A stretch of DNA of 64,000 bases. It comes from Curvularia clavata (Eukaryota). Position 1 is the first letter of the stretch, and the number at the start of each line of letters is the position of its first letter. The translations under genes and the position numbers were made by a program. Below the pieces are notes generated by a model that was not told the origin of the DNA, made no database searches, and was given only the letters and a program-made list of their open reading frames with translations. This document shows positions 2,469-60,504 of this stretch, in pieces. The stretch lies in the NCBI GenBank assembly GCA_023920165.1, contig CP089275.1:5146001-5210000 (forward strand), given 5' to 3'.

Positions 2469-4668
2469 ATGGCGCCGCGATTCAACCCAGGAAAGCTGTT
2501 CATCCGAACGCGCTTCAACTACGAAAAGGTCCCCGGCCAGGAGAGCCAGGGTTCTTCCCCCCTACCGCTCTTCAACACAAAATCATGGGGCAAGAAGTAT
2601 GGCCAGCCCGCCTGGGCCAGCCGCATCCAGCGCCCTCGCCTCTCCTTTGCGCGCCTCATCACCCTTGCCGTGACGATAATACTCGTCTTCTCCATGATCG
2701 GCACCGGCGTCTACAGGAGGCATAGGTGGCACGCCCAGCCTCACAAGGGCGACGAGCGCAAGCAGTACCACTGGGAACACTACCCTCGGTAAGAGCTCCC
2801 TTCTTTCTGCTATATTTTCCTGTCACACATACTGACCCTTTCCCAGCCTCAACGGCTTCTTCAATGGAGTTCGCACTCTCGTGCCCTACGGCGACTGGGT
2901 ATCCGAGCAAGACTATGTCAAGTACTCGCAGAGCCCTAACCCTGAAGACAATGTCAAGCCCAAATGGCCGCACATGTCCAAGGAGAACAAGGAGCCTCCA
3001 ATGGATCCCGTTCCCTTCGATCCCTACAAGTTCGACTCCCCCCAGTACCTCAAGGACCACGACGAGGTCAAGACGTGCTATCTCGACGAGGAGGAGAAGA
3101 TCGACCTGCCTGACATCTACGCTTACCCCGGTATCCCCCAGAACATGACTGCTCCTTTCTTCGGCTCATACGAGGAGCTCGGTTTCGACGACAAGAAGTG
3201 CTTTGACCGCTTCGGTCGCTTCGGACCGTACGGCTACTCGTACTCTCGCGACGAGGGCGGTCTTGAGATGGACGGCAAGTCTGAGAAGGCCGGCGCCGAC
3301 AAGATCTGGAGCTGGGAAAAGAAGGTCGACTACCGCAAGGTCAACTGGGCCTCTGCCATGAAGCGATGCCGCGAAAAGAACGCCCACCGCTTCAAGACTA
3401 ACAAGACCGATGATTCGGCTCCCGCAAAGAAGAAGGTGCCTCGCCACGCCTACGTTCTCCGCACCTGGACCGGCTACAAGTACAGCGACTACCAGATTCT
3501 TACTCTCCGCGCTATGATCAACGAGCTTTCCCTCAAGTCCGGAGGCGAGTACGACGTTCACTTCCTGCTACACGTCAAGGACGACAGCCTCCCAATCTGG
3601 TCGTCAGAGGAGATCTACCAAAAGGTCATCGAAGACAACCTGCCCAAGGAGTTCTGGGGTATGGCTACGCTCTGGTCGGAGCAGCAAATGCGCATGTACT
3701 ACCCCGAGCCATTCCCCAACAATGTCTACAACCACGCCAAAGCCCCGGTCCACTCCGTCTACCGCAGCGCTCACTTTGCCATGCAGTGGTTCGCCCAAGC
3801 CCGCCCAGAGTACGACTTTTACTGGAACTGGGAAATGGATCTCCGTCTCAGCGGCCACTACTACGAGTTCCACAACAAGATTGGCGAGTGGGCCAAGAAG
3901 CAGCCTCGCAAGGGCTTGTGGGAGCGCTCGTCGCGATACTACATTCCCGAGCTCCACGGATCATGGAAGAACTTCACCGAAATGGTTGAGGAGGAGCTCT
4001 ACAACAGCGACGAGAAGCCAGTCTGGGGCCCTCCCAAGTTCCCCAACACCGGCATGCTTCCTAGCCCTCCTGAGGTCGAGCCACCCCACTCTTATCTCCA
4101 AGACAACTACGAATGGGGTGTAGGCGAGGAAGCCGACATCATCACCTTCAACCCCATCTTCGACCCGGCAAAGACCAACTGGGTCTTCCGTGACGATGTG
4201 ACCGGTTACGACCTCGAGCTTCCGGAACCCCCGCGCCGCTGTGCCATCATCACCGTTTCGCGTCTTTCAAAGCGCCTCTTGGATCTCATGCACCGCGAAA
4301 CCTACCTGATGAAGCACCACATGTTCCCCGAAATGTGGCCGCCGACCGTTGCCTTCCACCACGGACTTAAGGCCGTCTATGCTGCACACCCCGTCTACTT
4401 TGATCACAACTGGCCGCTCGAGATTCTCGAGGGAACTTTCAACCGTCCCCCGAAACCCACCGACAGCGTCTTTGGCTGGGGCGAACACAACCAGCTCGGC
4501 AACAGCTTCTACTACAACGCCGCCTTCTCGTCAGAGTGGTGGCGAAGGTGGCTCGGCTCTCGCGAAAACGACAAGGGCGGCGCCGCAGAGGAAGAAGCTG
4601 GCAGTGGCCGACTGTGCATGCGCAACACGCTCTTCCACCCCGTCAAGTACGAGAGGGGGTCTGAGTGA
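2469..4668 (+). CDS. DUF3405-family type II membrane protein (possible glycosyltransferase-like); 2 exons, intron 2789-2846
   Basis: ORF 2469 carries one TM helix (LITLAVTIILVFSMIG). It splices via GTAAGA..CTGAC..CAG into the 595-aa ORF with CFDRFGRFGPYG, LRAMINELSLKSGGEY, WNWEMDLR and W..GEEAD motifs typical of fungal DUF3405. Confidence 0.85.
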
Positions 4669-6202
4669 CTTCGCTTGCTTCGCAAATATACCCCTTTAAT
4701 CGCTGGCTTGTGCGGATTGCTTCTTTGTCGGCTCATTCTTCGCCTCCGCAAATTCGTCTGTTTATAGATTATCTTTTGCGTTACTTTGGGTCCTGCATCT
4801 GCAACGTTCACTTTCGTGGCGTTTTCACCATCGGGCGGCGTAAAACGGCGTTTTTCCTTTTGTTCTTTTCTTTTCTCTCCCTCTTTCTCCAGGAACATTC
4901 GGTTGCGAGCGTATTTCCTTGGTCTCTCCGGTATCGCACACTCGAGTTCCGGATTATCTTACCTTCTCAGCGTATACCTCTTGCTTGACACCAAAAAGTC
5001 GCAGGAAGAGTAATCAGCCGACAATCCCGGCGTCCCCTCCTTTTGGCCAGCGTCTTGGGTGTTGGACTGAAAAAAAGAAGCCTTGTTTGGATTGTGGATG
5101 GGGAAGTGCGGAGGATTAATAGGAGAGCCGATTTGCTCCCTTCCCGATGTATTGCTTTGGGAGTTTTTTTCTTTGTCCGACGTTCGGTATGTTGATATGT
5201 GTAGATGATGGGATACCTGTACCCGGGCTCTTTTATTCCTACGGCGAAACCCACCCAAGACTGGTCTCTGAACTGTGGTTGTACATTTATGAAAATGCAA
5301 TACAATAATCACATAATGTCCAAAACGACTTGTGTTCTGGTTCCTTGTGCACGGTGATGTGGTGATTGTTATTCACCTAGTGTCAGACAGCGGTCAATTG
5401 GTCAAACGCAGTATCACCACTATGGAGCGGCTCAAACGGCGAAGAAGATTGCAGTTTGCCGAACGATGAAGCTCGGGATCAGATTGCGTACATCATTATG
5501 CGTTCCAAAGCGGGAGTGGTCGGCATGCCGTGGTGTAGCTACACACATCACCACATACTGTTAGACGTCACTTTTCCGTAGCCCCTGCCCCCTGATGCAT
5601 ATGGTAAACATCAAGCACATTCCTCGGCTCGCCAGCCACTTGGGTGTCTGCGCGGTGTCTGGCTCTTGTCAGGGGCTGGGGCACTGTGTGGCGTGGCTAG
5701 ACAGATGGTGATGTCAAAGCGGCTTCCCCAACACTTGACACCCCGGCGGTAGGACCACGTTATCGCCCCCCTTGATAACTCCCAATCTCTCAATTGACAC
5801 GCGGCTGTCCCCACACGTTGTCGCTAACCTTAGCCTCTGTTACCCAGAACAAGCATCGGCACATCCCCTGGCAGCAGCACTATCGCAGGCTTAATCGCCG
5901 CTTGACTGTGAAGAGTTAAAGGTGGGGCGGGAATAATGGCAGGCGACGAAGCCTAGGCGCATCCTCGATCTGCGCGCAACGTACATGAGCGAACATGCAC
6001 GCCCGCCATGTGAGCACGCGATAAACTGTCCTTGACCTCCTTTTGCCCTTGCTTCTTTTTTCCAAACAGAATCCTTGCCATACGCCACAGACTTGTCGGT
6101 CTACGGCGTGTTCTAGTCTTTTGAAGGCACTATAGCCATCTCCCTTTCCAACGATCGGGGCTATTGGACCATGTGCCTCATATACACCAATCCGCAGTCA
6201 CG

Positions 6203-7423
6203 ATGAGGCTCCCGGTCGAGACTCTCTTCCTCCTTGCGCATATCATATACTTTACCATTGCCACACCTGTACCCGTCGCCCGTCGCAGTACACCTTTCCG
6301 TGCCCTCCGCGGCCTATCGCCGTTAGTTAACTCTTTTTCCAACGGCCATACCTACCGACATGCGCCCACGAAGTACTTTTACGAATCGACGTTCAATTCA
6401 CACTACGATGGCCGGTTTGCTTCATCTGAGCTTCCCTTTGCGGAACGAGTATGGAACCTACGGCTGATGCTAAAAGCCTACACCGAGACCATGGATCAGA
6501 TAGGGATCCAGACATGGATCATGCATGGGTGTCTGCTAGGATGGTGGTGGAACGAAGGCCTAATGCCCTGGGACAAGGACCTCGATTTCCTCGTCGAAGA
6601 AGAAGGGATCCATGAACTCGGTGAATGGTGGAACATGACGATCCACCACTTCGAAGCCAAGCGGCTGGGTCTCGAAGACGAACACTCTCTCGAAAGCGAC
6701 CATTGGGCCAGCGAACGCCGCAGCGAGCAAGAAGAAGCCGAAGACGACGAAGCGCGCACAAAGCGCCTAGGCTGGGAGAAAGAGGTCCGGGAAAAAGGGA
6801 AAAAGTACCTCATGGAGGTCAATCCAAACTACACCAACAAATCCACAACAGACAAGTACAACCTCATTGACGCGCGGTGGATCGACACCTCCAACGGCCT
6901 CTACATCGACATCACCACCCTGCACGTTGCACCCGTCAAACAATCCGACGAAGACGACACCTTCTCCCTCACCCCCTCCTTCACTACCTACCCCTCGGCT
7001 CACGAACCGGACCCAGACGACCCCTCCGACGACATCCAACTCTACGTCAAAGATACACACGCCTACCTCTCGTCTCAAATCTACCCTCTCCGCACCTCGT
7101 CCCTCGAGGGTGTCCCCGTAAAAATCCCCTACGCCTACGAAGAACTGCTCCTCGAGGAATACGGCCCAGATGCTCTCACCGAATCCTGGTATAATGGCTA
7201 TGCATTTGATAAAGAGAGGGCGCAGTGGGAGATGAAGGATCCGACAGAGGAGCAGAGAAGGTATTTTAGAGACAAGTTGGGCAGGGAGAAGGGCAGGGCG
7301 AGTGGCACGGGGAGGATTACACATGTTTGGACTGGAGGGGAGGAGACTGCCGGGACTGGAGAGAGTAGTTTTGCAAAGGATGTTAGGGGGTTGAATGGGG
7401 AGAAAGTTGCTGCGTGGAATTGA
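6203..7423 (+). CDS. LicD-family phosphotransferase (MNN4-like mannosylphosphorylation protein)
   Basis: N-terminal hydrophobic signal, then HYDGRF, TWIMHGCLLGWWWN..MPWDKDLD, IDARWIDT.NGLYIDIT and IYPLR motifs. First ATG at 6203. Confidence 0.85.
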   Translation: MRLPVETLFLLAHIIYFTIATPVPVARRSTPFRALRGLSPLVNSFSNGHTYRHAPTKYFYESTFNSHYDGRFASSELPFAERVWNLRLMLKAYTETMDQIGIQTWIMHGCLLGWWWNEGLMPWDKDLDFLVEEEGIHELGEWWNMTIHHFEAKRLGLEDEHSLESDHWASERRSEQEEAEDDEARTKRLGWEKEVREKGKKYLMEVNPNYTNKSTTDKYNLIDARWIDTSNGLYIDITTLHVAPVKQSDEDDTFSLTPSFTTYPSAHEPDPDDPSDDIQLYVKDTHAYLSSQIYPLRTSSLEGVPVKIPYAYEELLLEEYGPDALTESWYNGYAFDKERAQWEMKDPTEEQRRYFRDKLGREKGRASGTGRITHVWTGGEETAGTGESSFAKDVRGLNGEKVAAWN

Positions 7424-11017: not shown

Positions 11018-14000
11018 TCAAACATCCTTCTGGCGTCCTGGAAGAACCCAAAAAGAGGCTACAATACCCAAAAATACCATCATCGGAACAGATGCATTTT
11101 GTAGGTCACTTGGATGAAGTTTCAACCACCAAACCCAGAAACCAAACCATGCCAGAATTGATGCTGTGTGATAGATGAAAACCATTGGAAAAGACAGCAC
11201 GTAAACAGCTTCGAGCCCATAAGCAACATTCTCAGGTAGTGCCACTTTGGTATCAAATAGAGATAGTTTTCTTGGGATTCTTTGCCACTTGTGAGAGGCT
11301 TCGTAGGGACGACAACATCGGTGTCTGAAAAAGGGAAGACGAGACCAAAGGCAATACCTGCTGCATGTACGGAGGTATCTCATAAATTCGTGCTTGCCAA
11401 TTGGTGGCCTCTCGGCAATTCGGGGTCGAGGGTGGTACTGAGCCTCGCGGTGATGGTCCTCAGGAAGGTGTTCTCCGCAACAATACACTCGGTCAATGTT
11501 CATCGTGTCAAACTATGTGGATTAGTGTTGTCTTGGGGAGAAGAGGGGAAAGGGATAAGAAGCACCACACATACCTGTACAAATCTACAGTAACAGAATA
11601 TATAGGGAGACAACCTTCTCAATAGAGACCATCGATACTTGGATTCTAATCGTCTTAGCTCAGTGAAGAATGTGGCATCGTTCATAAGAGGGCATGATGT
11701 GTCAATGTTCTCTATGTCATTGAAGCCAGATCCGTCTTCGATCCCAAAAACAACCCATGCTGAAACTTGAGAGGGATTTGTAGGTAAACCATTCGTGCTA
11801 TTGCTTTGTACTTGCGCGAAGTTGCTAGTGACATTGCTTGATTGAGAGGATGTTGCGCCTACCGCGTTGTTTGCGCTGGCTGATGATGTTCCTGCCGCTG
11901 GTGTATTCGATGGGGTATAACGCAGCCGAGCCGCGGATGCGGACGAAGACATAGGCCAGTAATTTTGAATTTTCTCGATTAGGCATGTCGAGACGTCCTT
12001 TAGAAACTCTAATGTATTCTGTTGGTTCACTTTCGCTCTGCAGCAATAGCATTTGGGTGGATGGCTGTCAATTTGATCCAGGACGCTCTGTACTTCAGCG
12101 GCTTCTGTGGACGATACAGCCCGGTAAAAGAAGTAACCTGAGATCTATACCAGGGTTTAGCCTACAACAGTTTACCGCACTTTGAGTGAGCCTACCTGCC
12201 ATTCAAGGCGTTGCCGGTCTGGCGGCAGATCAGGCACTCGGGATTTCAGAGGCCACCAGTCCCATTCGATGGCTGTGTTGTCTTCAACAAGCGCCTTGAT
12301 TCTATTGATAATGGTAACATCGTTTGTGTGTGATATGTGGATATCCTCTCTGGGAACAGTCTTTACCACTTCTCTTAGCGATGCAGGAAGGAGTAGCAAT
12401 CTTAACTCCAGGCTGAAAATATCCATGTGGCGGCGCAAAAACTCTTTAGCGCCGTCTATAACGGAAAAGAAGCTGATGTCGAAGTCGTCTTGGGGATCAA
12501 CTAGTCTTTTAGTCTTTCCACTGTCGTCACAGTCCTCGTCGCTATCCTCTTCACTTTCAAAAATTCCATCTGTATGAATTTGATCCACTGCAAGGTCATG
12601 CGTATAAGAAGCTAGCTCTTCTATACGGCTAGACTGTTCTTTCTTCGTTATGAGCCGACCATCTATTAGATCGAGCGGTACTCGCGGATATTGGTTGCGT
12701 AAATCAAAAAGTTCGATGAGTCTCCGCGCGATATCATTTCGGTTTCGTTGAGATTTCAATACACGAATAGTAACCTCTTCAGCATAGGTCCGTGCTTCTG
12801 ATCGTCCTTCCAATTTGAGTGCGTAAAATTTGAGAATTCGACAGTAGTAGTTTACAAAGCGCTTGTATCCAAGTCGCTTAGACAAGTTGTCGTGTAGTGG
12901 TCGCAGTTCTTTCAATCTCCAGAAGAAAGTCCCCAAGACGTTGATAGCGCGTAGCCTTGCACGCGTCCTTACTTCAATGCCAATTTGTGAACTAGTTTTT
13001 CTGTTGTAGGACAATACAGAGTTCTGGTCTTCGTCCCTCTCGTTCGATTCGGAAATCTTGAGACTAGGCACTCTTGATGTCGTCGCCATGAACACTGACT
13101 GTCTGTTTAGTTTGTACGCAAGTGCAAGCGCACGCTGTGATGCCAGTCGGTGTGGGTGATGTTCTGTCAACACCCTCTCTTGCACTCCTACTACATGTTC
13201 TAGCAGTGCTACTGCTTCCTTAAACCGCCCGCTGTCTCGGTATGCAATCGCCAGCATATATTCTTTCAGCAGTCGGTTCGCATCCGTCTCTTCGCATGCA
13301 CCCTGCCTCCATCGAAAGCTCACTTCTAGCCAATATACCGCCTCCGTAAATTTTTCATCCAACAAGAGACACTGTCCTGTTAATAAGCTCAGCTCAGCAT
13401 TCACCCCGTCGGTAAAGCTCTGGAAGTTCCTCAATAAGCAAAGCGCGTGCGGCCGATATGCCTTCCATGCTACCTCGTTCGCATGATAACTCGATGCAAT
13501 GACGTTCGTGGCATGCTTCAATGCTCGTTGTAGTGTGTCTGCTACGCTCTCAAACTTGCTCGTCCAGATACGGGCAGCTGAGTGCACAACTGGATGCATG
13601 TCATACCATTCTTCATTAGATATTTCTGCTTGCACCTCACCTCCACACTTAGAAAGGAGTGCGTAGCTGCACAAAATGTTGATCGCTTCTTTTGCCCGCT
13701 CTTCAGACTGCGTCATGATAAGCAGCGAACGGGGGATTGCCCTCCACCCGATGCATGATATGAATGCCAGAAGATCCGCCTCCACCAAGCTGCGCTCGCG
13801 GAGCTGAGAAAAGGAAACCATTAATGTCGTTACAATTGCTCTAGTTGAGTTTTCGTTATGTGTAGAGTCGAGAAACTGCTCAACACCAATCTCCATCAGA
13901 TCCTGTTCGGTACGGTTTAGCAACTGCATATACTTCGCTACAGATATATTATTCATGTTTAGATAGGCAGCTGTCTGTGCGATGGCCAAAGGCCAACACG

Positions 14001-14703
14001 CCAGCTTGCGTAGGAGCTGTCTTATCGTTTTATTTTGTTGAGCCAGCTCCTTCCTGATCAGAGACTTCTGGAGGAACTCCACAGACTCCTTGAGACTCAT
14101 TGACCCCAGGGGTAGGATGTCTTGCTTCGGAAATGTTTTTGTTGCAATCCTTCCTTCGATTGACGGGTGGAAGGTAATCAATGTCATGCCCTTCTTACTC
14201 TGAGGTATGTAGCCGAGAAGCTCGCCCTGGTACACGTCCGCATGGTCAAGCACTACTAGCCATTGACCTGCTTCATCAGAGCTGAGATATTCCCTCACGA
14301 CGGCCTTGGCGTCATTTCCACTTATGTCTGCCTGGTTTGTTTGCAGCTCTGCTAAAACATCTTTACAGGCCCGTCCGAAACTGTCCCTGCTCCATGCAGG
14401 TATCCAAAAGATTGAGACAGCGGGCATGGTGTCTTTCACTACGTGTGCAAACTGCAAGGCAATCTGTGTCTTGCCCGTTCCACTCGGCCCAACGATAGCT
14501 GTTCTGCTTTCATGGTTCGTGAGCAGCCTTTGGCTAAGTATCTCGAGCTCGTTTTTTCTGCCGACAAAATTAGGATTCTTGGCGAACGGTAAGACGTAGC
14601 GTGCTTTGTGGGCAGTGGTGTGAGTTTGGGCGTTGAACATGCCAGGCGACCGAGAAAGCGAGTTTGGCGAATTGTAGTATTTCGAGACTGGTGACATCGA
14701 CAT
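11018..14703 (-). CDS. NB-ARC + short TPR protein fused to an uncharacterised C-terminal domain with terminal TM helices (~1190 aa; introns 12145-12195 and 11513-11574)
   Basis: LPFAKNPNFVGR, Walker A GPSGTGKT, Walker B WLVVLDHAD, PLAIAQTAAY, DMHPVVH and kinesin-light-chain-type TPRs (EHHPHRLASQRALA). Both introns have GT..CTAA..AG and join the three ORFs in frame. Confidence 0.75.
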
Positions 14704-15103
14704 GTGAAGAGCGATTGCTGTCAATACCGACAGTCAAACTTGTAATCAAGAATAGATAGATTAAGTGACCAGGCTGAAATATATGCAGATATTTATCTAT
14801 GATGAGCGCGAGGCTGCTGACCAGCCTGGTCAATGTCTTGCAGTGGGGAACGTGGCGGAGCATCGATAGGTACTGGGGAGAACAGGAAGTAAGCTGAGAG
14901 GTTGCAGCGTTGGGTAGGCTGCAGCTCTCTTTACCCATTCAGCTCGCCTTCCCCGCTCGAGCACATCCTCACCAACAGACATGCACAATGCACATCAAGA
15001 GGATATTGCTTACATGTGGTCAGGTCGTGCCGGCAGCATATACATAACACCTTTAGGTCTAATGCCAGACGACTTCTGGAAAATTGACATGGTAGGATTA
15101 ATA

Positions 15104-16454
15104 CAGTACTAACGCATAAGTTTCGCGACACGGGCCGAATTCCGCCCCACACCAAATCTTACCCACCATGATTTCACCACTAAAATTACCACCAAAACAG
15201 CATATTTTTGAAGTCTGACAAATACATTTTGTTCCTAAATACTAGTATTTAGTTTGCCAGCCTTTTGCAGCTCGACAAGCTGCTAGACGGCGCGGCATAG
15301 AGCCAATTAGAGCCTCAATATACCTGCGTGGTATACGCCGCCAGCAGTCTTTTAGAGCCTTACAAAAACCATTCCACTCTTCCTCTGCTACGCTATAATT
15401 GTTATATTGTGGGTAGAATATATGCATGCGTTTTTTGAGAAGCCACCAAAGATGCTCAATAGGATTGAGATCTGGTGAGAAGGCTGGCCAGTCGAGTGTT
15501 GTAATCTGGTGCTCGGTAAGAAATATTTGGACGACTTGAGACGTGTGTATACGCGCGTTGTCTTGCATGAAGAGCTGATTCGGACGGTAGTGAGGGAGTA
15601 GACCTTGACGAAGGACTTTGATGTAGCTTTGGCTGGAGTAGCCACCGCGGGCGGCATTGGGATCCCTTTCCATAATGATGAGACGACTCCGGCGACCGCG
15701 CCCACGTTCATCCAGCCATATAGCTCCCCACACCATCTGTTGTGCTATTTTGCCAGCGGGTATTTCTGTTATCATTCGTCTCTTCCATTTCTCTTCTGAA
15801 TAGCGAAAACACCACTCAGTTGTGGCGCCAGAGCCCTTCTGAATGGAGCACTCGTCTGAGAACTTAATTATGTGACGACGCCAAGAAAAGCTGCGGTACT
15901 TGCGAGCGAATAGCAGACGCTTGTAGGCATGAGATGGAGTAATTTTTGGACGTTTTTTGCAGCGGTGATTGCGTATATTTTGACTTTTAAGCACTCGGTA
16001 TAATGTATCGTGGCTAGGAGGCTTCGAAAGAGTGCCATCAGGCTGCACTACAACTGCTACTTGGGCAAGCTGTTTGTATAGAATTTTTGGTGTTGCGCGT
16101 ATAGCCCGATATATAATCTTTTTCTGACGAGTCGAAAGTATATGTGGACGCTCGGATCGAGGCCTGTCACGCGTAGTGGCAGTAGTGGAGAACTTTTCTT
16201 GTAGTCGGTAGATAGTAGAGCGCGCGCGTCCAAACTTGGCTGCGACTTCTGACACTGGTACGCCCCCCTGTAACATGCCGATTGCAATATTTCGCTCGTC
16301 TACTGTCATATTTAGACCGCGCACCATCGTTTTCTGCACTCAGCGCTCGAATTAGTGCAGTGGTGGGGTGGTGGTGGGCATTCAAAGTGGTGGTGGAGGT
16401 GGTGGTTGGTGGGGTGGTTGGCGCTAGTGTCGCGAAACTTTAGCGGAGGCACTG
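15104..16454 (-). mobile_element. Tc1/impala-like DNA transposon, 1351 bp, 28-bp imperfect TIRs, TA target duplication
   Basis: Left TIR CAGTACTAACGCATAAGTTTCGCGACAC (15104-15131) versus reverse complement of the right TIR CAGTGCCTCCGCTAAAGTTTCGCGACAC (16427-16454), 22/28 identical. TA at 15102-15103 and 16455-16456. Confidence 0.92.
15242..16324 (-). CDS. Tc1-family DD34E transposase, uninterrupted ORF
   Basis: N-terminal HTH; FSDEC, FMQDNARIH and WPAFSPDLNPIE, with 34 residues between the second D and E; C-terminal GWQTKY. Confidence 0.93.
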   Translation of the reverse strand: MRGLNMTVDERNIAIGMLQGGVPVSEVAAKFGRARSTIYRLQEKFSTTATTRDRPRSERPHILSTRQKKIIYRAIRATPKILYKQLAQVAVVVQPDGTLSKPPSHDTLYRVLKSQNIRNHRCKKRPKITPSHAYKRLLFARKYRSFSWRRHIIKFSDECSIQKGSGATTEWCFRYSEEKWKRRMITEIPAGKIAQQMVWGAIWLDERGRGRRSRLIIMERDPNAARGGYSSQSYIKVLRQGLLPHYRPNQLFMQDNARIHTSQVVQIFLTEHQITTLDWPAFSPDLNPIEHLWWLLKKRMHIFYPQYNNYSVAEEEWNGFCKALKDCWRRIPRRYIEALIGSMPRRLAACRAAKGWQTKY

Positions 16455-16456
16455 TA

Positions 16457-16767
16457 TGTAAGGCTAGGGTGATCCAAACCTAAGCAAAACGTATCCAAAC
16501 AGGAGTAGTACGAGACTTATTAGGCGAAGCACGTAGCCGGCAAGCTTAGCTAAAGACAAAAGCCCAGTCATAGAGCTATACTCAGTTGGGCAAGACCTAG
16601 CAGTACCATAATACACTAAAGGACAAGGAGGGCAAGGTAAGAACATATAACTTGATTTTGAACGAGACGAGTTAATAGAGAACAATTTAATCACGTCTTA
16701 GTTTATGTCATATCACCTAAGGAAGTAGATGGAGAAAGCCAACCAGTACTGGGCGCCGGTCCTGACA
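16457..16767. mobile_element. Probable solo LTR (311 bp)
   Basis: Starts TGTAAGG and ends CCTGACA (TG..CA, 6/7 inverted termini). TpA-rich and non-coding. No target-site duplication recognised. Confidence 0.5.
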
Positions 16768-51345: not shown

Positions 51346-52742
51346 ATGCTGAAGACACATCCAAGTCTCCTCAGAGATAGAGCTCCATTCCCGTTGTTGC
51401 GTCTTTGGCGTCGGGCAAGCACAGCTAAGCGATCATTCTCATCCCTTGTTCTTCAACATCGAGTACGGCCACTTGTCTCGGCAGCAATTCCACCATTTCA
51501 GCATCAATTGTTTGAGAGGCTCCAGAGACACAGCATGTCTACATCGGCAGACTCCCAGGCGTCCAAAAGGTCGCCCAATGCGCCTGTTGTTCCCCGACCT
51601 AGTGCGAGGTATGCCGTAATCCAAGTCATTGCGGCGACTCCATCACATGACCCAAACTAAACACGTCCAGCGTACTCCTGATATCTCCAACGAACCAAAT
51701 TTTGCTTCTTCATCGTGTCTCCAAAGCTTCTACCTTTGCTTCTGCCCATGTTTTCCCTGGTGGCGCAGTCTCAAAGACTCACGATGGTGAGATGCCTGGC
51801 CCAGACCATCCGGATAGACACCGAGACGGACCTGCCTACCGCATGGCAGCCGTTCGAGAGACTTTTGAAGAATGTGGTATTCTACTTGCAAAGAACAAGA
51901 AGACCGGAAAACTCTTCACTGAGATCAGTGACGAAGAAAGAGAGCAAGGAAGAAGAGATGTTCACAGCGGGAAGATCAAATTTGGCGACTTATTGGAGAA
52001 ATGGGGCGCCGTTCCCGACACTCAATCGCTCATTCCATTCACACGCTGGGTAACTCCCGCAAAGACACCCGCAACCCTTCCCAAACGCTTCACGACCCAA
52101 ATGTACATATACTTTCTCCCTCTTGGCTCCGTCTCTCCCACCAAGCACGCCGCTCCAAAGGGCACACCACCCTCCTCCGGCCTCGCAGAAGAAGACGAAA
52201 TCATCATCCCAAAGCCTACGCACGACGGCGGGATTGAACACACTGCTGCCCGCTTCCTCCCTCCTAACAAATGGATCGATCTCGCGCGTCAAAACAGAAT
52301 CATCTTATTTCCACCCCAGTTCTTCCTCACACTCCTCCTCTCCCCCTATCTCTCCGCCACCGTAACCTCACCTTCTTCACCCACCCCTTCCTCTGCCGAA
52401 CTCCAAGCCGAGCGTGACAGGCTCCTAGATTTTCTACACAAGCCGCGCGTCTACAACGGGCAGCCTGAAGTCCCCTTCACCGAAGCCTGCATCTCGCCCA
52501 TGACACTGGGCAAAGGTGAGTATGGTGAGAGCAAGCAGGATGGCATTGGAGGTGTGGATAAGAGCACCGCGGTGCTGGTGTTGGATCGACCGGGAAAGGA
52601 AGTTGAAGAGCAGGGGCAGGGGAGGATGGGGATTAGGGAGTGGGTTATCACTGCGAAGTTTAAGAAGGAGGGGCCGAGGGATGTGGATGTTAGAAGGAGG
52701 GAGGAGGTGCTGGGGGATGGTGGGGTGAGGGGGAAGTTGTAA
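51346..52742 (+). CDS. Nudix hydrolase, NUDT19-like (acyl-CoA diphosphatase type); intron 51609-51670; alternative start at 51535
   Basis: PRPSASVLL, HVFPGG, AAVRETFEECGILL Nudix box, RWVTP..KRFTTQMY, LFPPQF. Confidence 0.88.
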
Positions 52743-53525
52743 GGGTAGATGGTAAGCATGACAGGGACTTTTTCCTTTTGTAAAGTCATCCAAGATGTTT
52801 GACAAGGTTTACCCACGTGTATGGAAAATCAACAATGACGAGGTTACGAAAATAGGAACATGAGCTTGAACAATCTAATGTCCATCCCTGCGTGCCGAGA
52901 CACCCTGCGTAGCGAGACGCTACAGTTTCTATGCTACACAATAAGACCTTCTATAGACTATTAGAAGACATATTCTTAAAATGAAAACTTCTTATCTTAA
53001 AGTCTCGTATAATCTAAAAATCTATAAAAAATCTGCTATAATTACTGTATAATATAACAGCTTATAGTAGTAGCCATACTATCCCCTACCTTTAATCTGC
53101 TACTAGTGCCTTAGAAGTCGTCCTATCCTATAGAAAATCCTGCAGCCTATATTATAATATTTAGCTATTTGATCTTAAGATTTACGCATAATTTCAAGAC
53201 TTTAGCAAGTTTTTAAGGTAATTTTGATCATATGTGCCAGAAATCGCAGACGGGGACAACCTTAGCATCTAGCTTAAAGCAGCTTAGTCGTAATCTATAA
53301 AGTCTAGATGCACTTATACAAGTCATATATAGCTGGCCTGGCCAAGACATAACTCAATAAGCCCGATAACCCAAGGCGGTCTGCTTATCTACAGTGCCGT
53401 ATAGTTGTGACCGCTATTATATAGATATTACATTTTTCTCTAATACATATAATTTGTATTACTGAATAACTGTGTACTCTTTATTTTGTAGATAAAACTA
53501 GGTGACAGTGCAGTGCTGACGTGTC

Positions 53526-56267
53526 TTACTTTGCCCGCCACTTATTTAGTGATGCAAATGACCATTTGGTGTAAAAATGACTTGCGCCAAGGACTGTGTG
53601 GCAGAGCTGCCAGCATGTCTCTAGCAAAGAGAGAGCCTCCTCGTCTCGTCCTTGAATCTTGAGAGTAAAGGCGAGATTGTTCATGCTGGTCAGCGTAGAG
53701 GGATGCTCCTCGCCAAGCACCCTCTTTCTCGTCTCTATCACTTGCACCTCTAGCTCTTCAGCCTCCTTCCACCGCCCTTGCTTCCTATACGTCGACGCTA
53801 GATTCGCTATACTAGTCAGCGTAGAGGGATGCTCCTCGCCAAGCACCCTTAAGCTCATCTCTGTCACTTGCACCTCTAGCTCTTCAGCCTCCTTCCACCG
53901 CCCTTGCTTCCTATACGTCGACGCTAGATTCGCTATACTAGTCAGCGTGTTAGGATGCTCCTCGCCAAGCACCCTTAAGCTCATCTCTGTCACTTGCACC
54001 AACAACTCTTCAGCCTCTTTCCACCGCCCTTGCTTCCACTACGTCGACGCTAGGTTCGCTATACTAGTCAGCGTGTTAGGATGCTTCTCGCCAAGTACCC
54101 TTAAGCTTATCTCCATTACTTGCACCTCTAGCTCTTCAGCCTCCTTCCACCGCCCTTGCTTCTCGTACGTTGACGCCAGGTTCGCCATACTAATCAGCGT
54201 AGAGAGATGCTCCTTACCAAGCACCCTCTTTCTCGTCTCCATCGCTTGCACAAACAGCTCTTCTGCTTCATTATACCGTCCATCACTATACATAGTCATT
54301 GCATATTTCCATGTTAGCATAGACCTTCCGTCACTATCTACTTCAGGAGATCTGTACGATAGAGCGTACTTAGTATGCGGGAGCAATCGTCTCCACTTGC
54401 TCCTATTTTGATGGTTATGGTCTGGGAATACTCGAAGCAGCTGAGTAAAAGCATGCTGGGTCTGTTGGCTCATCCGATCTTGCTGCTGAAGCCACTCCCG
54501 TATTCCATAATGAACTAGTCGGTGCACGTCCAATGCAGAATCTTCAGGCCGCCTGGTAACGAGCGCGTACCTGCTCAGAACCTGTACTGCTTGTTCTCGC
54601 TCTGAGTGACTATTTGCATCGAATAGATCGAGAGGAATGTCCTTGTAGGCCATGCAAGCAGTAAGTAGCAGAAAGTCTGCTGCAAGCGCATGCATACGGC
54701 GGATCTCATCGAGAGAGATGAATAGCGTGGCAGCTACAGGACTCTTTGCGCTCCACCCCTGTTGTCTGTCCCCTACTTTTCTACTGCCTTGCTTGACGTC
54801 GTGCTCGTTACGCGTGTTTAATTGTGATCGGTAACCTTGAAGCGTTGTCGCTGTAGCATTAATGTATGCTGTTGCTTGCACAATCGCCAGCGGGAGACGT
54901 GAAAGCTCTTCTAGCAAAAGATACGCCTCCTGCTGCTCGCTTGAAGATACTGGCGTGTTCAAATAGTTCTCTAACATTATTCTGGCAGCATCTGGTGTCA
55001 GCTCGTGTAATTCTATGAGCGTGTTAAACGCTACTTGCTTAGCTAGACTGCTATTAGTTGTTGTAAACACGGCGGAGCATCGTTTTGACTGAGGTAGGTA
55101 CGTAGTCAAGTCTGCTCCCCGTACTGCCGATAGCCCGCTAGATCCTAGACTGATGTCTTCTGTGTTGTCTAAAATCAGCAAGCAGTGCGCTTCGCTCTCT
55201 TGTTCGAGACGAAGTTTAACGAGCTGCTTAGTGTCTGTCTTCTCATCGTCCCAGCCCGGAATGTCGAGCCTCTGCGCAATGCTAGTGTACGATTGATCAA
55301 AACTGTCTTTGTTGCTCGCATCCACCCAGAATACGGAGCAAGACTTGTTTTTCCATCTCGTTCTATACGCAAGCTCGAGCGCTAGCTGTGACTTGCCTGT
55401 TCCGCCAGGCCCTACTATCGCTAACATTGTAGTGGTGTGCTTATCGGCAAACAGCTTTGCCTCTAGCGTAGCAATTTGAGACTCGCGTCCTACAAATTGG
55501 TCGTTGCGGGAAAACGGAATGATAGAAGGTATGCTATCGGCCATCTCTACTTCCATCTGGAGTCGTCTCCGCGCTCTGTCCTTCCCTTCACTATAGTTGG
55601 CCTGCATGGTCACATTGACGAGTCCAAGAAGGCAGTATACGATGTCTTCCTCCTCAGTAGTCTTGCGATTATCCGCCCAGTGCATTCGCTCGTGTCGGGT
55701 AAATTGGTCTAAGGGAAGATTGCGTAATGCTGCGAGCGGAATGCGAGTAACTTCATGCACGACTTGCTCTAGATCAGATTTGTCGCCTAGTCGGTGCTCT
55801 TCGTAGCTGAAAAACTCCACTGATGCTGGCGCAATCAGCTCTTGGAGCGTCCAGCCCCGAGTGAACCATTCGCTTGCCCGGAAGGATGCTTCCCAGTCGC
55901 TACGTTTTGGTGTGTCCGTCGCAGCAAGGACCGAGACATCCGACAGGAACACGTAGCATTTCGTCGCGTTACTGTACCAGCGAAACATGGAGTTGATTGC
56001 TCTCGAGCGCTCACGACTGTTCCATCGGTCAATACAGCACGTATCAATCCAGAAGTACTGGAGCTGGTCCTGGGCGGCCTGTTTGGCACAAAACAAAAGC
56101 TTGTGATAGCCATCCTTCTTCTCTTTGTATTCTCCGCTCGCTATGTCTTCAAACAGAATTTCTGACTTCTGCCATCGGTGCGAAAGGATAGCGTATGGTG
56201 GGACAGGCTTCCCGTGGAAGTCTGTTAAGATAAGTCGGTTCAAATGATCAAAGTGGAGGAGTCGCAT
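53526..56267 (-). pseudogene. HET-NB-ARC-TPR fungal NLR with an in-frame TAG in the TPR array (truncated allele or pseudogene)
   Basis: HET motifs PPYAILSHRW, YFWIDTCCID, AINSMFRWY, WFTRGWTLQELIAP; Walker A GPGGTGKS, LLILDN, DVHRLVH; 42-aa TPRs. The stop at 54039-54041 is followed by the same frame continuing to 53526. Confidence 0.88.
53660..54290 (-). repeat. Five ~126-bp high-identity TPR repeats
   Basis: QGRWKEAEELEVQV.E...RVLGEEHP.TLTS.ANLAST units, near-identical at DNA level. Confidence 0.92.
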
Positions 56268-57289
56268 GGCTGCAGTACGAAAAATACAATCAAGATAGTG
56301 AGGAGCTGATGATGCTGGCAGCAGACTGCAAAGGCAGGCTGTTGAAGCACGAAGCATTGAGGCGCTGGCCTGGCTCAGCCCCAGAACCCCGCCTTCCGGT
56401 GAGGCGAGAAGTACACAGCCTGCTCGCACTGCCGTCTCTATTGCACTGAGAGAAGGAGTAGGTCATTTCAGTGGCTTCTGTCCAGTCTGCTCAGCCAGGA
56501 TGCGCTGCTAGGGTTCTTCTCACTTCAAGCGATGATGCTGGTTGACTGAGTTATGTCCCTCTCAGCGAGTTCACGTTAGCCCCAGTCGTGTTGCGAGGCA
56601 CAGATGGATCAAGCACGTGATGTTTTGACTCGTGCACAGATGGCTAGTGTCAGCAGCAATACATTACAGCTAAGCTACTTTCAGGCTAAGGCTCTGTGCT
56701 GTCCTTACTATGCATTCTAGCTGGCGGAGTTTGAATGAGCATAGAAGCATGCCAACACTTTAGATAGGCACAGGATTCTCAGAATAAGTTAGACATAACA
56801 TTTTTAGTATACTACCGGAATGATAGCAGAGTGCACAAGCTTTTGGCGCACTTACGGGTAGTGGAAGGCAAGCGATTGTGTGGCTCTTTTAGTAAGTTGT
56901 TGTATTACACGATAATCACAGCAGATTTTTCGCAGATTTTCAGGTTGCACGAGACTTTAAAATAGGGATTTTTTATTCTAAGAACATATCTTCCTACAGT
57001 TTACAGAAGGTTTTGTTGTGCAGAGTAGAAGCTGTAGCGTCTCGCTACGCAGGGTGTCTCGCCACACAGGGAGGGACCTTTGGCATTCGAAGTTTTCGTG
57101 AACAACACAATTCATAATTAAACTAGATAATCATTGCATCGTGCATCTACATCATCTCGTCGTGAGCATCATGTGTAAAAATCCGCGTGGGCGTCGTATC
57201 TGTAGAAACTGAGAAGAAATAAAAAATCTATCCAAGAATCGGCCGTGAAAGTCGTCCATTCATCATCATCATCATCTTCGTCATCATGA

Positions 57290-59529
57290 TCATGATCTCT
57301 GAATCTCCACAATCGTGTCCCCACTCTTCGACTCCGGCTTCACCTTCTCCACCTCTTCATACGCCTTCTCATCCGCCAGCGTGCCCATGCGCATAAGCCC
57401 ACTCTCTCTGCCTTCGCCCATCCTCTGCACCATACGCTGAATATTCGGATGGCTCGGCTGGGGTCTTTGACTCAATCGCCTCGCCGGGATATGGTGACTC
57501 CTTCCGAGTCTTGCACGCATCGCTTCTTCGGTAGTCAAGGAGCGATGGACAGGGGTACGCGGCGGCACGTTTTCATCGTCTGGTAGCTTTTTCTTCTTGT
57601 CCTTTTTAGGGTGGATGAAGCGCCAGAGTTCCTTGGTCTTTTGCGCCCAGATGCTGTAGCCGTATTTTGTAGAGAGGAAGCCGATGATGCTGAAGAAGGG
57701 GATGCAGATGGCGGCTAGCACGATGCCGAAGTTGACGAAGTTGGCGCGGTCGGGCATGTTGGTCATGCCGAAGATGGAGGTGACGAAGGTGAGGGGCTGG
57801 TTGGGTGGGCGGGTTAGTGGGCTCGTCTCTAACTGTGTTTGCAGAGTGGTGTGAACTTACCATGAAGAAAAGGTTGACAATGGTGAGCACCTTGATGTTG
57901 TAGCCTTGGTGTACAGTAACATCTGCTAATTCAACAGACTTTCGTGATTCCTGAATGCTAGTGCCTGAGAAGAGCTGTTCCTGCAGCGTTTCAATCTCGT
58001 GTCGCCTTTCGTTGTTTTCGGCAATGATTGTTCGGAGCTCTTTCATCTCGCGCTCAAACTGCAGCCTTAGTAAACGTAGCCGCCGTTTCCAGTGCTCATT
58101 TCGTGGCGACTCTTCGAACAACGGCCACAGCATCTTGTTCGTGCCTTCCCAGATGTCCTCGGTGAAGGTATCTTCAAAAGCGTCGATCATGGATTTGATG
58201 CTGTTGTTGACATTGCCCAGCGTCTGATGGGCGTAAAAGTAACGGCGCGTCCAGGTAAAATCCTTGTCTTCAAAAAGACGATTTCGCCGCAGGTCCTCAT
58301 CGAACAGAAAGCCCAATGGCGGAGTAACAAGTTCGGTAATGCGCTTGTAGATCTCATCATATCTCTTTCGTGCGTCCCGGTATTCTGTCAGTAGGGCATG
58401 CAAAAATGCCTCGGCGCCGTTGAGGAATTTGTGTCCAGTTTCAAAGGTATAAGGTGTTCCATGGGCTTTAGGTAGATTGGGTTAGCGTTCTGGTCTTCAT
58501 GTTGGGTGTAGGCTGGCGGGGATAAATACCAGGCTGTGATTTCCAATCGGGAAAGCATTCGAGTTGCAGAACCTGCCATGGGCTCCATACATCCGAGACA
58601 TGCCCAAACCGGGTTTTGGCGCGTCTGCCCCGGTTGCGGATGCGGCGGGGGTTCTCATCGTGGAATACTAGTGCAACGATGGCGCTACATCGGGCCAAGG
58701 GGATGTGGTGCTCACCATCAGCAGCACCACTTACACTGTCGGCGCGCTGCCAATGAGCCGGTCTGCAATCTTCCCCGATTATTGTGTAGTACTCGAAGTT
58801 GAAATAAAAAGAGCTCTGATGCTTGGGATCTTCGTCAAAGGCCCGGAACATGTGCGCTGAAGAGGCCTCTGTCTCAACAAGTCTTTGAAAGAGTTCATCC
58901 ATGTCAAAGGCTTTGTGCAGAGTCAGATGCAGGGCACCAAATAAGATCGGAGAAGGTTCACGCGCAATAGTGATGCGTCCGACTACGACTTCGTCCTCAT
59001 GCTTGGCAACCTCTTTCAGTGATTCCCAGATTTGAGTTGCATTGGACATGTCGTTGTCAGGACTGGCGACTTCAACCAACTGGGGTAGTCCATTACGGCC
59101 CACGTTGTAGACCTGGAAATGTGAGTAATGGCTGCGATCTTCTGCTGGGCTGGAATCCTGGTGAAACAGATGGGGTTGTTTTGCAAGCTTGACGGGATCA
59201 GCGAGAACAGGTGCCAAGATCTCTCTGCCGTGCACGTTCCAGGAGTGATTTCTGAGATGTTCGCGAAGGTGTTCATGGTCGAAAGAGTGAGTCGGAAGTT
59301 CATCCTGAACAAAGAAATCATCCTCGTCGTCGTCGCTGTCATCTGAAAGTGTTGAGGTGTCAGCAAAGACAGTGTCGCCACCGAGTCGCGTGGAGGAACG
59401 TCGAAGGCGTGAAGCATCAGATGGCTTGAAAGTATCATTGGTTACCGATAGGCTGTTCAGTAGTGCGTCGTGAGAGCGCTGGAGCGTCTCGAGCTGCTGT
59501 TTCAGCTCCTCAAGTTCTGTGTTCGCCAT
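57290..59529 (-). CDS. CorA-like (Mg2+ transporter-like) membrane protein, 3 exons
   Basis: Long soluble N terminus, coiled coil, then NIKVLTIVNLFFM|PLTFVTSIFGMTNMP and a second TM helix; splice sites restore the frame. Confidence 0.75.
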
Positions 59530-60504
59530 ATGTTTGTCCTGTCGCTAAGTGAAGAGGCATCGAAGATGCAGTTGGCAGAGATCGCGTTTGTCAAGCTTCC
59601 AGCTTATGTTGCCCAGAATTGTTGATTCCTTTCTTGGCCCCCACCCGCCTTGCAGATGGCCCAGCCTTCCACCAAGCGGTCGAAGACTCCGTCCAATGCC
59701 CATCGAAGCTAGTGTGGAGCAGACGCAGGAGCCGCACTCAGGAGAGGGGCTCTTGTCATAGAGCATGTGTCGAATTGTGATGATGTGCAAGTTAAATGCC
59801 CATGATGTGGCTCACCGCCCTTTTCCGGCTTGCCAAGCCTCTCGACAATCCGGTGCAGGCCCGATGCAGAGGCATAAAGCGCGAGGGTTCGACCAACTTG
59901 CCCGACAACTGTGCGCTGTATGCAAAGTGAAGTGGCTGGTGACCGCCTCTTCCACGGAGAGTAGGTGGCGAAGGATGCGCCAAGAATCCCGTGGATGCGT
60001 GCTGAGCTTCCCGCCCAGGCGTACCAAACTCATCGCCGCTTGCAAATATATAGTAGATGACATGTGTCGATAATGCCCACACCCACTGGAACACTAAAGC
60101 AAAATATCTCTCCTACCACTAGTAAAACTGCAAAATCAAAACGAGCCACCTACGCTGCCAACACAATAGAAGACACTGCGACAACTACCGCTATTTTTGA
60201 AAGTAGAGATAGAAGTGCTAAGAACACAGTGAACAATAAATATCCGTGACAACTACAGCTACTTTTAAAAGCGGCAGGTTTTTATAGGTTGCCATTTTCC
60301 AGTTCCGTCAGACACGGGAGAGAATGTATACGTAGGGAAAGATGGGTACGAGGACCGATATACCGGAGACCTTGGTGTCCGCTCATTGGTGCTCGCTTAT
60401 CTCAGTCCCCGTTTTTCGGAGTAAAGACGCCATTCACCTAATATGTGTCATCACTTTCTTTACACTCGCCAACAGCTATACTCAACAGGTATTGAGAGGC
60501 CAGC

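Follow-up and report, generated by a model that had tools for sequence, protein, structure and literature searches.

A putative non-autonomous, TA-duplicating transposon around a HET-NB-ARC-TPR receptor gene of Curvularia clavata

In a 64-kb stretch of DNA from Curvularia clavata (contig CP089275.1; the whole stretch of 64,000 nucleotides is called the window in the following, and positions refer to it), the region 52878–57079 is probably one non-autonomous transposable element with terminal inverted repeats (TIRs), which carries a gene for a NOD-like receptor (NLR) of the HET-NB-ARC-TPR type. This reading is built on a long inverted repeat, on tips belonging to a dispersed family with a TA target-site duplication (TSD), on an interior which holds a single gene, and on the presence of the same insertion in relatives. 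We infer in addition that both ends arrived as one element, that a DDE enzyme of the Tc1/mariner or pogo type moved it, and that the NLR gene was captured as cargo. Turnover of NLR repertoires is very rapid in fungi, and the means of their movement is the question at stake; an NLR gene as the sole content of a definable 4.2-kb TIR family with a searchable tip motif makes NLR movement directly testable by genome scans.

Inverted repeat, end modules and gene

A repeat search revealed a gap-free inverted repeat of 216 nt with arms at 52877–53092 and 56865–57080, which are 78% complementary and separated by 3772 nt. Counted arm against arm, 168 of the 216 positions match, and 37 of the 48 mismatches are transitions; at 26 of these, A/T in the left arm stands opposite G/C in the right arm, and the reverse holds at 11. 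The TIRs around a HET-domain NLR gene, as described in an initial annotation of this DNA, are thus confirmed. Self-BLAST of 52000–58000 against the window returned the arm pair (E = 1e-45) and no further copy, and a 29-mer common to both tips occurs exactly twice in the window, compared with no occurrence in 100 shuffles. The divergence is unevenly distributed: there are 3 differences in the first 49 nt versus 45 in the other 167 aligned positions (27%), and such near-identity at the very ends would be consistent with binding sites having once been under constraint.

Comparison with the family described below sets the limits of the element at 52878–57079 (4202 nt). The clear part of the left TIR (52878–53092, forward strand; GC content 0.35) was delimited by repeat search, mismatch count and self-BLAST. 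It contains two tandem 16-nt subrepeats CCCTGCGTRSCGAGAC at 52886–52918 (forward strand), which are likely transposase-binding sites, and is preceded by the TA of the left-edge TSD at 52876–52877, where the window reads ...aatcTA followed directly by ATGTCCAT. The clear part of the right TIR (56865–57079, reverse strand) has its own two tandem 16-nt subrepeats at 57039–57071. A second TA would be expected at 57080–57081, where the window reads tt. In sequencing run X5, TACA is inserted after 57079, giving ...GGGACCT-TA-CATTGG (depth 118.8 of 118.8, one contig); because of these letters, the window is considered to have lost 4 nt at its right edge, the TA included. The initial annotation had seen no clean TSD; a TA borders the left edge of the element in the window, and the right edge in X5.

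Homology between both ends of the window element, although diverged, reaches inward for about 420–445 nt, and probably about this length of each end was homologous originally. The left end module (52878–53297, forward strand) was delimited by MAFFT alignment with the metagenome loci L010, L023, L024 and L005 and by a transition-tolerant alignment of both ends, and ends in the motif CTAGCTTAAAGCAGCTTAG, roughly 400 nt inward of the tip. The right end module (56634–57079, reverse strand) was delimited by BLASTN and alignment; its part 56635–56756 matches positions 323–441 of L010 (74% over 127 nt, E about 1e-12), and the motif lies at 56670–56690. In general form, CT(T)AGC(T/C)T(A/G)AAAG(C/T)AGCTTAG is found at about 400 nt from the tip in both ends. 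Two short extra contigs of run X1 end at 56681 and hint at more diverged relatives of this inner motif. When the arms were compared with the tip repeat, neither was found to bear a second tip at its inner edge; the arms are therefore not two complete small elements. The flanks of the window element, GAACAATCT and TGGCATTCG, do not match each other. Classification of the element as a miniature inverted-repeat transposable element (MITE; under about 800 bp, non-coding, with both tips) was rejected, since it measures 4202 nt, holds a gene and has one tip per arm.

The NLR gene occupies 53526–56267 on the reverse strand, with its ATG at 56267. A HET domain (residues 45–130) is followed by NB-ARC (282–507) and then by TPR_10/TPR_12 repeats, with Pfam scores all above the curated cut-offs (HET 2.1e-10, NB-ARC 4.8e-11, TPR_10 1.5e-20 and 2e-50). 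The predicted product corresponds to the fungal NLR build, i.e., an N-terminal effector domain, a nucleotide-binding and oligomerization domain (NOD) and C-terminal repeats which form a superstructure. A search found 7866 homologues, and most of the matches listed share these three types of domain; in Pleosporales alone, members of the family number in the thousands. Residues 1–632 are identical to the protein P0006, which bears the name "kinesin light chain 3 [Curvularia clavata]". Among relatives with a name, those ranking next, from Lojkania, Patellaria and Bipolaris zeicola (69%), are only 66–72% identical.

The TPR region contains an array of 126-nt (42-aa) TPR_10 repeats, 74–86% alike, at 53634–54281 (reverse strand; repeat search, family D1, self-BLAST and Pfam). 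Inside this array an in-frame TAG at 54039–54041 (reverse strand), where sister repeats have a Y codon, ends the frame after 742 aa. It is followed by 171 further in-frame codons of intact-looking TPR repeats, and the product would have 913 aa if read through. Because of this TAG the gene is not intact in the Curvularia clavata genome; the same letters are present in contig 5 of X1 (53953–54084, 0 differences, depth 91), a run which may be the window's own source. The gene model of P0006 removes a 60-nt GT..AG piece that holds the TAG, and also an 87-nt piece which the contig of run X22 does not remove. At 54039–54098 (reverse strand), the change from TA(C/T) to TAG also creates the AG which closes this 60-nt in-frame piece, with its GT start and CTGAC. 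Splicing of the piece, the intron of P0006, might bypass the TAG at the cost of half a TPR repeat; no RNA contig is listed over it.

The NLR gene is transcribed in run X22, which was taken to be RNA on account of a loose end with poly(A) plus adapter and two skipped 64-nt pieces of the neighbouring gene. One X22 contig spans 54206–56390 of the NLR gene with one gap, and X22 has no depth in the bins at 56520–57121 and almost none at 52908–53509. Between the arms, the open reading frames (ORFs) of at least 80 aa comprise the NLR frame and ORFs overlapping it, and therefore no transposase is present inside the element. The initial annotation had stated the same, namely that the interval holds only the HET-NLR with its upstream region and no transposase. 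The interval also led to rejection of a Starship identity, since it holds only the NLR frame; no DUF3435 was detected among the 27 of 41 window ORFs of at least 170 aa which were scanned, the other 14 overlapping longer ORFs or being scanned separately.

The transposon family and NLR-type genes beside its tips

Metagenome contigs were scanned with the degenerate pattern CCCTGYGTNNCGAGACNCCCTGYGTNNCGAGAC for the double 16-nt tip repeat. An exact 23-mer of the tip had 0 matches in these contigs, and the degenerate double repeat was found at 27 loci; its presence at the tip in all 27 is by construction, being the scan pattern itself. As specificity controls, a prokaryote genome collection and viral contigs were scanned and each yielded 0 matches. 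The tip reads TA-A(C/G/T)GT(C/G)C and then the repeats, as in the window, in 24/27 loci. Deviating tips, with shorter or different leaders, are those of L005/L026 and L006; the latter has at 6001–6050 three tandem 16-nt repeats instead of two, without the usual TAACGTCC leader, in AT-rich DNA (GC content 0.35). The 27 loci represent 21 distinct sites, and outside flanks are common only within three same-site groups. SUR7, 2EXR, HET and protein kinase genes were found in the flanks; the contigs are therefore fungal.

Eight members are complete, i.e., have two inward-facing tips: six MITEs of 246–247 bp, one truncated copy (L003), and an element of 3817 bp in L019. In seven of the eight a TA stands at either end and the sequence outside it is unrelated, and the TSD of the family is therefore TA. 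By this duplication the family would be of the Tc1/mariner type (pogo included), an assignment to superfamily which rests on the TSD alone. Likeness to Pack-MULEs (Pack-type Mutator-like elements), as proposed in the initial annotation, is thereby not borne out, and identity with these was rejected, since the two flanks of complete members have nothing but TA in common. The L019 element has inverted end regions (233–592 versus 3381–3765, 72%) around a unique core. An ORF of 352 aa in this core has no Pfam family and no Atlas match, and may not be a gene.

The subfamily of the window comprises L010, L020, L023, L024, L027 and L005/L026, to which both window ends align well beyond 216 nt. Homology between loci ends at 411 nt (L010 versus L024) or 580 nt (L023 versus L024), and the interiors then differ; the alignments thus indicate a family build of conserved end modules of about 0.4–0.6 kb with variable cores. 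The tips of L020 and L027 are identical at 142/145 positions and lie in unrelated flanks (2727 and 1025 nt), and members of the subfamily have therefore transposed recently.

Every ORF of at least 110 aa from the non-duplicate loci was scanned against Pfam, leaving out the same-site duplicates L013, L016 and L022 and most of L018. NOD/NLR-type domains were confined to the interior of tips and to two loci, L005 and L024, both from the subfamily of the window; in the outside flanks of the same set of ORFs no NOD-type domain was present. What came closest there was a HET-only gene in the vicinity of the L004 MITE, together with a DDE_1 fragment not far from L019. L005, on the metagenome contig Ga0247733_1000019, contains a frame of 1181 codons with NPHP3_N/NACHT and 14 ankyrin stretches, whose 3' end is 1057 nt from the tip and which is 70–74% identical to NACHT-ankyrin proteins of Pleosporales. 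In L024, an ORF starts about 980 nt from the tip and reads inward; it has PigL_N (4e-11) and SesA domains and is 89–90% identical to the N-termini of NACHT-WD40 "HET-E-1"-like proteins of Pyrenophora, Bipolaris and Alternaria. No second tip was found between tip and gene in either locus, and the far ends of both elements lie outside the available sequence; in positions 1–1441 of L005 there was no tip-like 16-mer with 3 or fewer mismatches and no inverted match to its own end module. The possibility that L024 and L005 are two ends of one kind of NLR element was rejected, since tblastn of the L024 ORF against all loci matched only itself. The initial annotation had suggested searching for other pairs of TIRs, their cargo and an autonomous partner; eight complete members and, in L005 and L024, NLR-type genes inside one tip were found, and no partner in the window or at the 21 sites.

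Nine elements have an interior of at least 900 nt (the window element, L019, L005, L006, L024, L002, L017, L010 and L021). The first interior gene is of NLR type in 3/9, and in 3/4 within the subfamily of the window, where L010 shows none in 1099 nt. NLRs make up roughly 1% of genes, and for this reason a chance association in 3/9 elements appears unlikely, with n being small; repeated insertion beside NLR genes would look alike. Recurrent NLR cargo is suggestive only (n = 3). A role in the patchy distribution of fungal NLRs, as proposed initially, would be extrapolated from these three cases.

Two further observations were made on these loci. The N-terminal domain of the L024 ORF is 75–90% identical to at least 12 separate 90%-identity clusters of Pyrenophora tritici-repentis and to proteins of Bipolaris, Alternaria and Ophiobolus (P0122–P0151); such cross-genus conservation and copy number are unusually high for an NLR N-terminus and would fit spread by a mobile element. 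In L004, a HET-domain gene of 692 codons (3392–5467, reverse strand) has the family MITE of 246 bp (5993–6238) upstream of it, at a distance of about 530 nt.

History of the copy and rival explanations

Run X5 (organism D, 1–5% diverged) bridges both junctions of the element, with contig 23 covering 52547–53718 and contig 26 covering 54222–56597 plus 56634–59500. Contig 14 of run X4 bridges the left junction (52145–925). Since bridging contigs are found at the same site, the insertion predates the split of these organisms. The copy in the window is old, as follows from the same site in two relatives, from the lack of a second copy with at least 80% likeness in X1, from a left end resembling the products of repeat-induced point mutation (RIP), and from the in-frame TAG. 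The 36 nt at 56598–56633 are absent in X5, where contig 26 jumps from 56597 to 56634, and this gap abuts the inner limit of the right module as defined by L010.

The left end looks RIP-mutated, judging from its composition. Within the window, clear RIP-like features are limited to the stretch which begins with the left arm and reaches the 3' end of the receptor gene (GC content 0.33–0.36, TpA/ApT 1.3–1.4), including the AT-rich stretch at 53093–53525 between the left TIR and the gene (GC content 0.36, TpA/ApT 1.28). The TpA/ApT ratio of the left arm is 1.39, versus 0.74 for the whole window, and the bin 53001–53500 is the sole 500-nt bin with a GC content below 0.35 together with raised TpA/ApT. 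In the left arm 15/26 transitions are in CpA/TpG context, and the RIP substrate index (CpA+TpG)/(ApC+GpT) is 0.70, versus 1.23 for the window.

A sequence of events can be proposed as follows. A non-autonomous, TA-duplicating TIR element would have held a complete HET-NB-ARC-TPR transcription unit between end modules of about 430 nt. A transposase supplied in trans would most likely have bound the 16-nt tip repeats and moved the element. Its target would have been a TA within the 343-nt spacer (3'-3') which separates the NUDIX gene from the gene next to it, and the insertion would predate the divergence of the relatives sampled. Fixation would have been followed by decay, i.e., RIP-like C-to-T and G-to-A changes mostly at the left end, loss of 4 nt with the right TA, and the nonsense codon in the TPR region. 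Thus, of the non-autonomous transposon mobilising a complete NLR gene which had been postulated initially, one TIR element around the NLR probably stands; the gene carries a TAG, and recent movement is not shown.

Several observations weigh against a single element with travelling cargo. The window itself lacks a TA on the right, and the left TA of X5 was not seen letter by letter; moreover, TA flanks cannot separate one insertion from two. No second copy of the arms at 80% likeness or more was present in X1, where the arm bins have the depth of one spanning contig, so that the family would be represented in this genome by this one element; copy number was judged from X1 contigs, and contigs and filters can hide diverged copies, while X4 mixes contigs of several divergence levels, so that its depths are uninformative on copy number. 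No empty site was found among the joints listed for the runs compared, both relatives with bridging contigs (X4 and X5) holding the element, and insertion as one unit is therefore not demonstrated. In the right arm, 8/11 transitions are in CpT/ApG, which is not the RIP-typical CpA/TpG context. A transposase with these tips was found neither in the window nor at the 21 sites; the DDE_1 fragment of L019/L015 is not part of the element, being some 600 nt away from it. The Tc1-type transposon at 15101–16457 of the window was rejected as autonomous partner, since its TIRs share nothing with the tips of the NLR element.

The cassette could be a coincidence, if two family members, each cut down to one end module, had inserted independently and in opposite orientation around a resident NLR gene. 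The family is dispersed (21 sites) and includes small MITEs near genes, such as the one about 530 nt from the HET gene in L004; TA flanks fit any insertion, and an empty site was not seen in the runs compared. Two such insertions are nevertheless unlikely. Each arm has an outer tip only, so that both members would have had to lose their inner halves; the tips face outward, correctly oriented, at a distance of 4.2 kb, with no other copy in 64 kb and no further X1 contig on the arms at 80% likeness or more. Over the same span, the likeness between both arms (78%) exceeds that of the arms to every one of the 27 loci, against which BLASTN gave only tip matches of 42–102 nt, and L019 provides an example of a long-TIR element with a unique core within the family. 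A plain local inverted duplication of intergenic DNA, later blurred by mutation and with no transposon involved, would agree with the presence of only two copies in the window and with the lack of a further X1 contig on the arms; it is contradicted by the same tip at 21 unrelated metagenome sites, with TA flanks and complete small members, and must be regarded as most improbable.

The role of the NLR gene as cargo could also be disputed. End modules may target NLR genes, or NLRs may recruit ends, or the NLR gene may have entered a pre-existing foldback element of about 0.9 kb consisting of two 430-nt arms; in none of these cases would it be travelling cargo. A single subfamily has three NLR architectures beside its tips: the window shows HET-NB-ARC-TPR, L005 has NACHT-ankyrin, and L024 has the PigL_N/SesA N-terminus of NACHT-WD40 proteins. 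Repeated targeting and repeated capture would explain them equally well, the second end not being seen for L005 and L024. On the other hand, the NLR-type genes are interior to the tip in 3/3 cases, at 648–1057 nt and without a second tip between, and a NOD-type domain occurs in no outside flank (ORFs of at least 110 aa, non-duplicate loci). Explanations of this kind are considered improbable, and one non-autonomous TIR element carrying the NLR gene is preferred.

One low-depth X22 contig fits the window from about 52875, the boundary of TA and tip, rightwards, with at least 255 unlike letters before. The 30 letters printed from this loose end are not in the window; by eye, part of them resembles the reverse complement of the left flank of the window element. 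The loose end may stem from a further tip copy elsewhere in that organism's genome or from an assembly chimera, and was not counted as evidence.

Related systems and neighbouring genes

Pack-MULEs and other Pack-type elements are non-autonomous, have long TIRs and contain captured host sequence, mostly gene fragments; the target duplications of MULEs are 9–11 bp. The window element is like them in its long TIRs and captured host sequence, and unlike them in its TA duplication and its entire transcription unit. Tc1 elements of the inverted repeat/direct repeat type (Sleeping Beauty, Tc3, Minos) duplicate TA and have inverted repeats of about 200–250 bp, with short direct repeats as transposase-binding sites at their outer and inner ends; in the window family, by comparison, two 16-nt repeats (three in L006) stand in tandem at the tip.

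Gene capture in Pleosporales by hAT and one Tc1/Mariner element was reported for Pyrenophora tritici-repentis (Manning et al. 2013, PMC3538342). According to the available part of that report, the transduplicating Tc1/Mariner element resembles the one described here in its host order, in a host-type ORF between TIRs, in its size of a few kb (3.4 kb) and in being transcribed; it differs in having 46 copies, in keeping a transposase coding region and in the cargo ORF, which has an Osmo-CC domain. The window element is single-copy, without transposase, and holds a whole NLR gene; the comparison was made without tip sequences, none being printed in that part. Among the Pfam domains found in repeats, Table S12 of the same source, as far as available, gives no NACHT, NB-ARC or HET. 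In Cochliobolus heterostrophus, which belongs to a sister genus, seven MITEs with a TA TSD and TIRs of 27–70 bp were attributed to Tc1-Mariner (Santana et al. 2014, PMC4112212); unlike the present case, no cargo genes are described in the accessible part of that paper, and identity of the families was not compared, the sequences not being printed there.

Starships (Gluck-Thaler et al. 2022, PMC9156397) can have NLR genes as cargo (PMC13449251, from the part available). They are described as giant and as comprising dozens of genes, and the enzyme which moves them is a tyrosine recombinase with DUF3435 (PMC9594970, likewise a partial source). They share with the window element the fungal host and the NLR cargo; the window element, by comparison, is 4.2 kb long and has TIRs and TA flanks. 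In Podospora, NLRs with highly similar repeats were found in 2026 to be more often associated with transposable elements and occasionally translocated, the vehicle named in the available part of the work being a Starship (PMC13449251). Literature searches, outside subscription journals and Repbase-type libraries, found no small TIR element with NLR cargo and no printed match to the tips.

It is conceivable, though still doubtful, that a Pleosporales subfamily of long-TIR, TA-duplicating transposons serves as a dedicated NLR vehicle, with one complete NLR unit per element between end modules of about 430–580 nt and with differing architectures (HET-NB-ARC-TPR, NACHT-ankyrin, PigL_N-NACHT-WD40). 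If true, NLR translocation and patchiness, and possibly horizontal spread, would be due in part to small elements and not only to Starships. Should the link with NLRs be recurrent, immune receptors of eukaryotes would have a new route by which to spread; otherwise, the window element would be one more gene capture by a fungal DNA transposon, as described in Pleosporales since 2013 (PMC3538342).

The left neighbour of the element is a NUDIX-domain gene (51651–52742, forward strand), whose 3' end faces the element. The right neighbour (57290–59544, reverse strand) belongs to no Pfam family; contig 12 of X22 skips 57797–57860 and 58466–58529 of it, 64 nt each and intron-like. Of the initial designation of the neighbours as Nudix and CorA-like, the former holds; for the latter, 0/3 ORFs at 57290–59544 had a Pfam match.

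Elsewhere in the window, a second NLR-like gene lies at 12172–14733 (reverse strand), with NB-ARC plus TPR_10/TPR_12 in a frame of 853 codons and without an enclosing inverted repeat; it is another NLR near a TA-type transposon in the same 64 kb, at about 370 nt from the Tc1 element at 15101–16457. The latter appears intact, with 31-nt TIRs which start with TACAGT and are 81% complementary, and with one ORF of 365 codons containing HTH_Tnp_Tc3_2 and DDE_3 domains and no internal stop.

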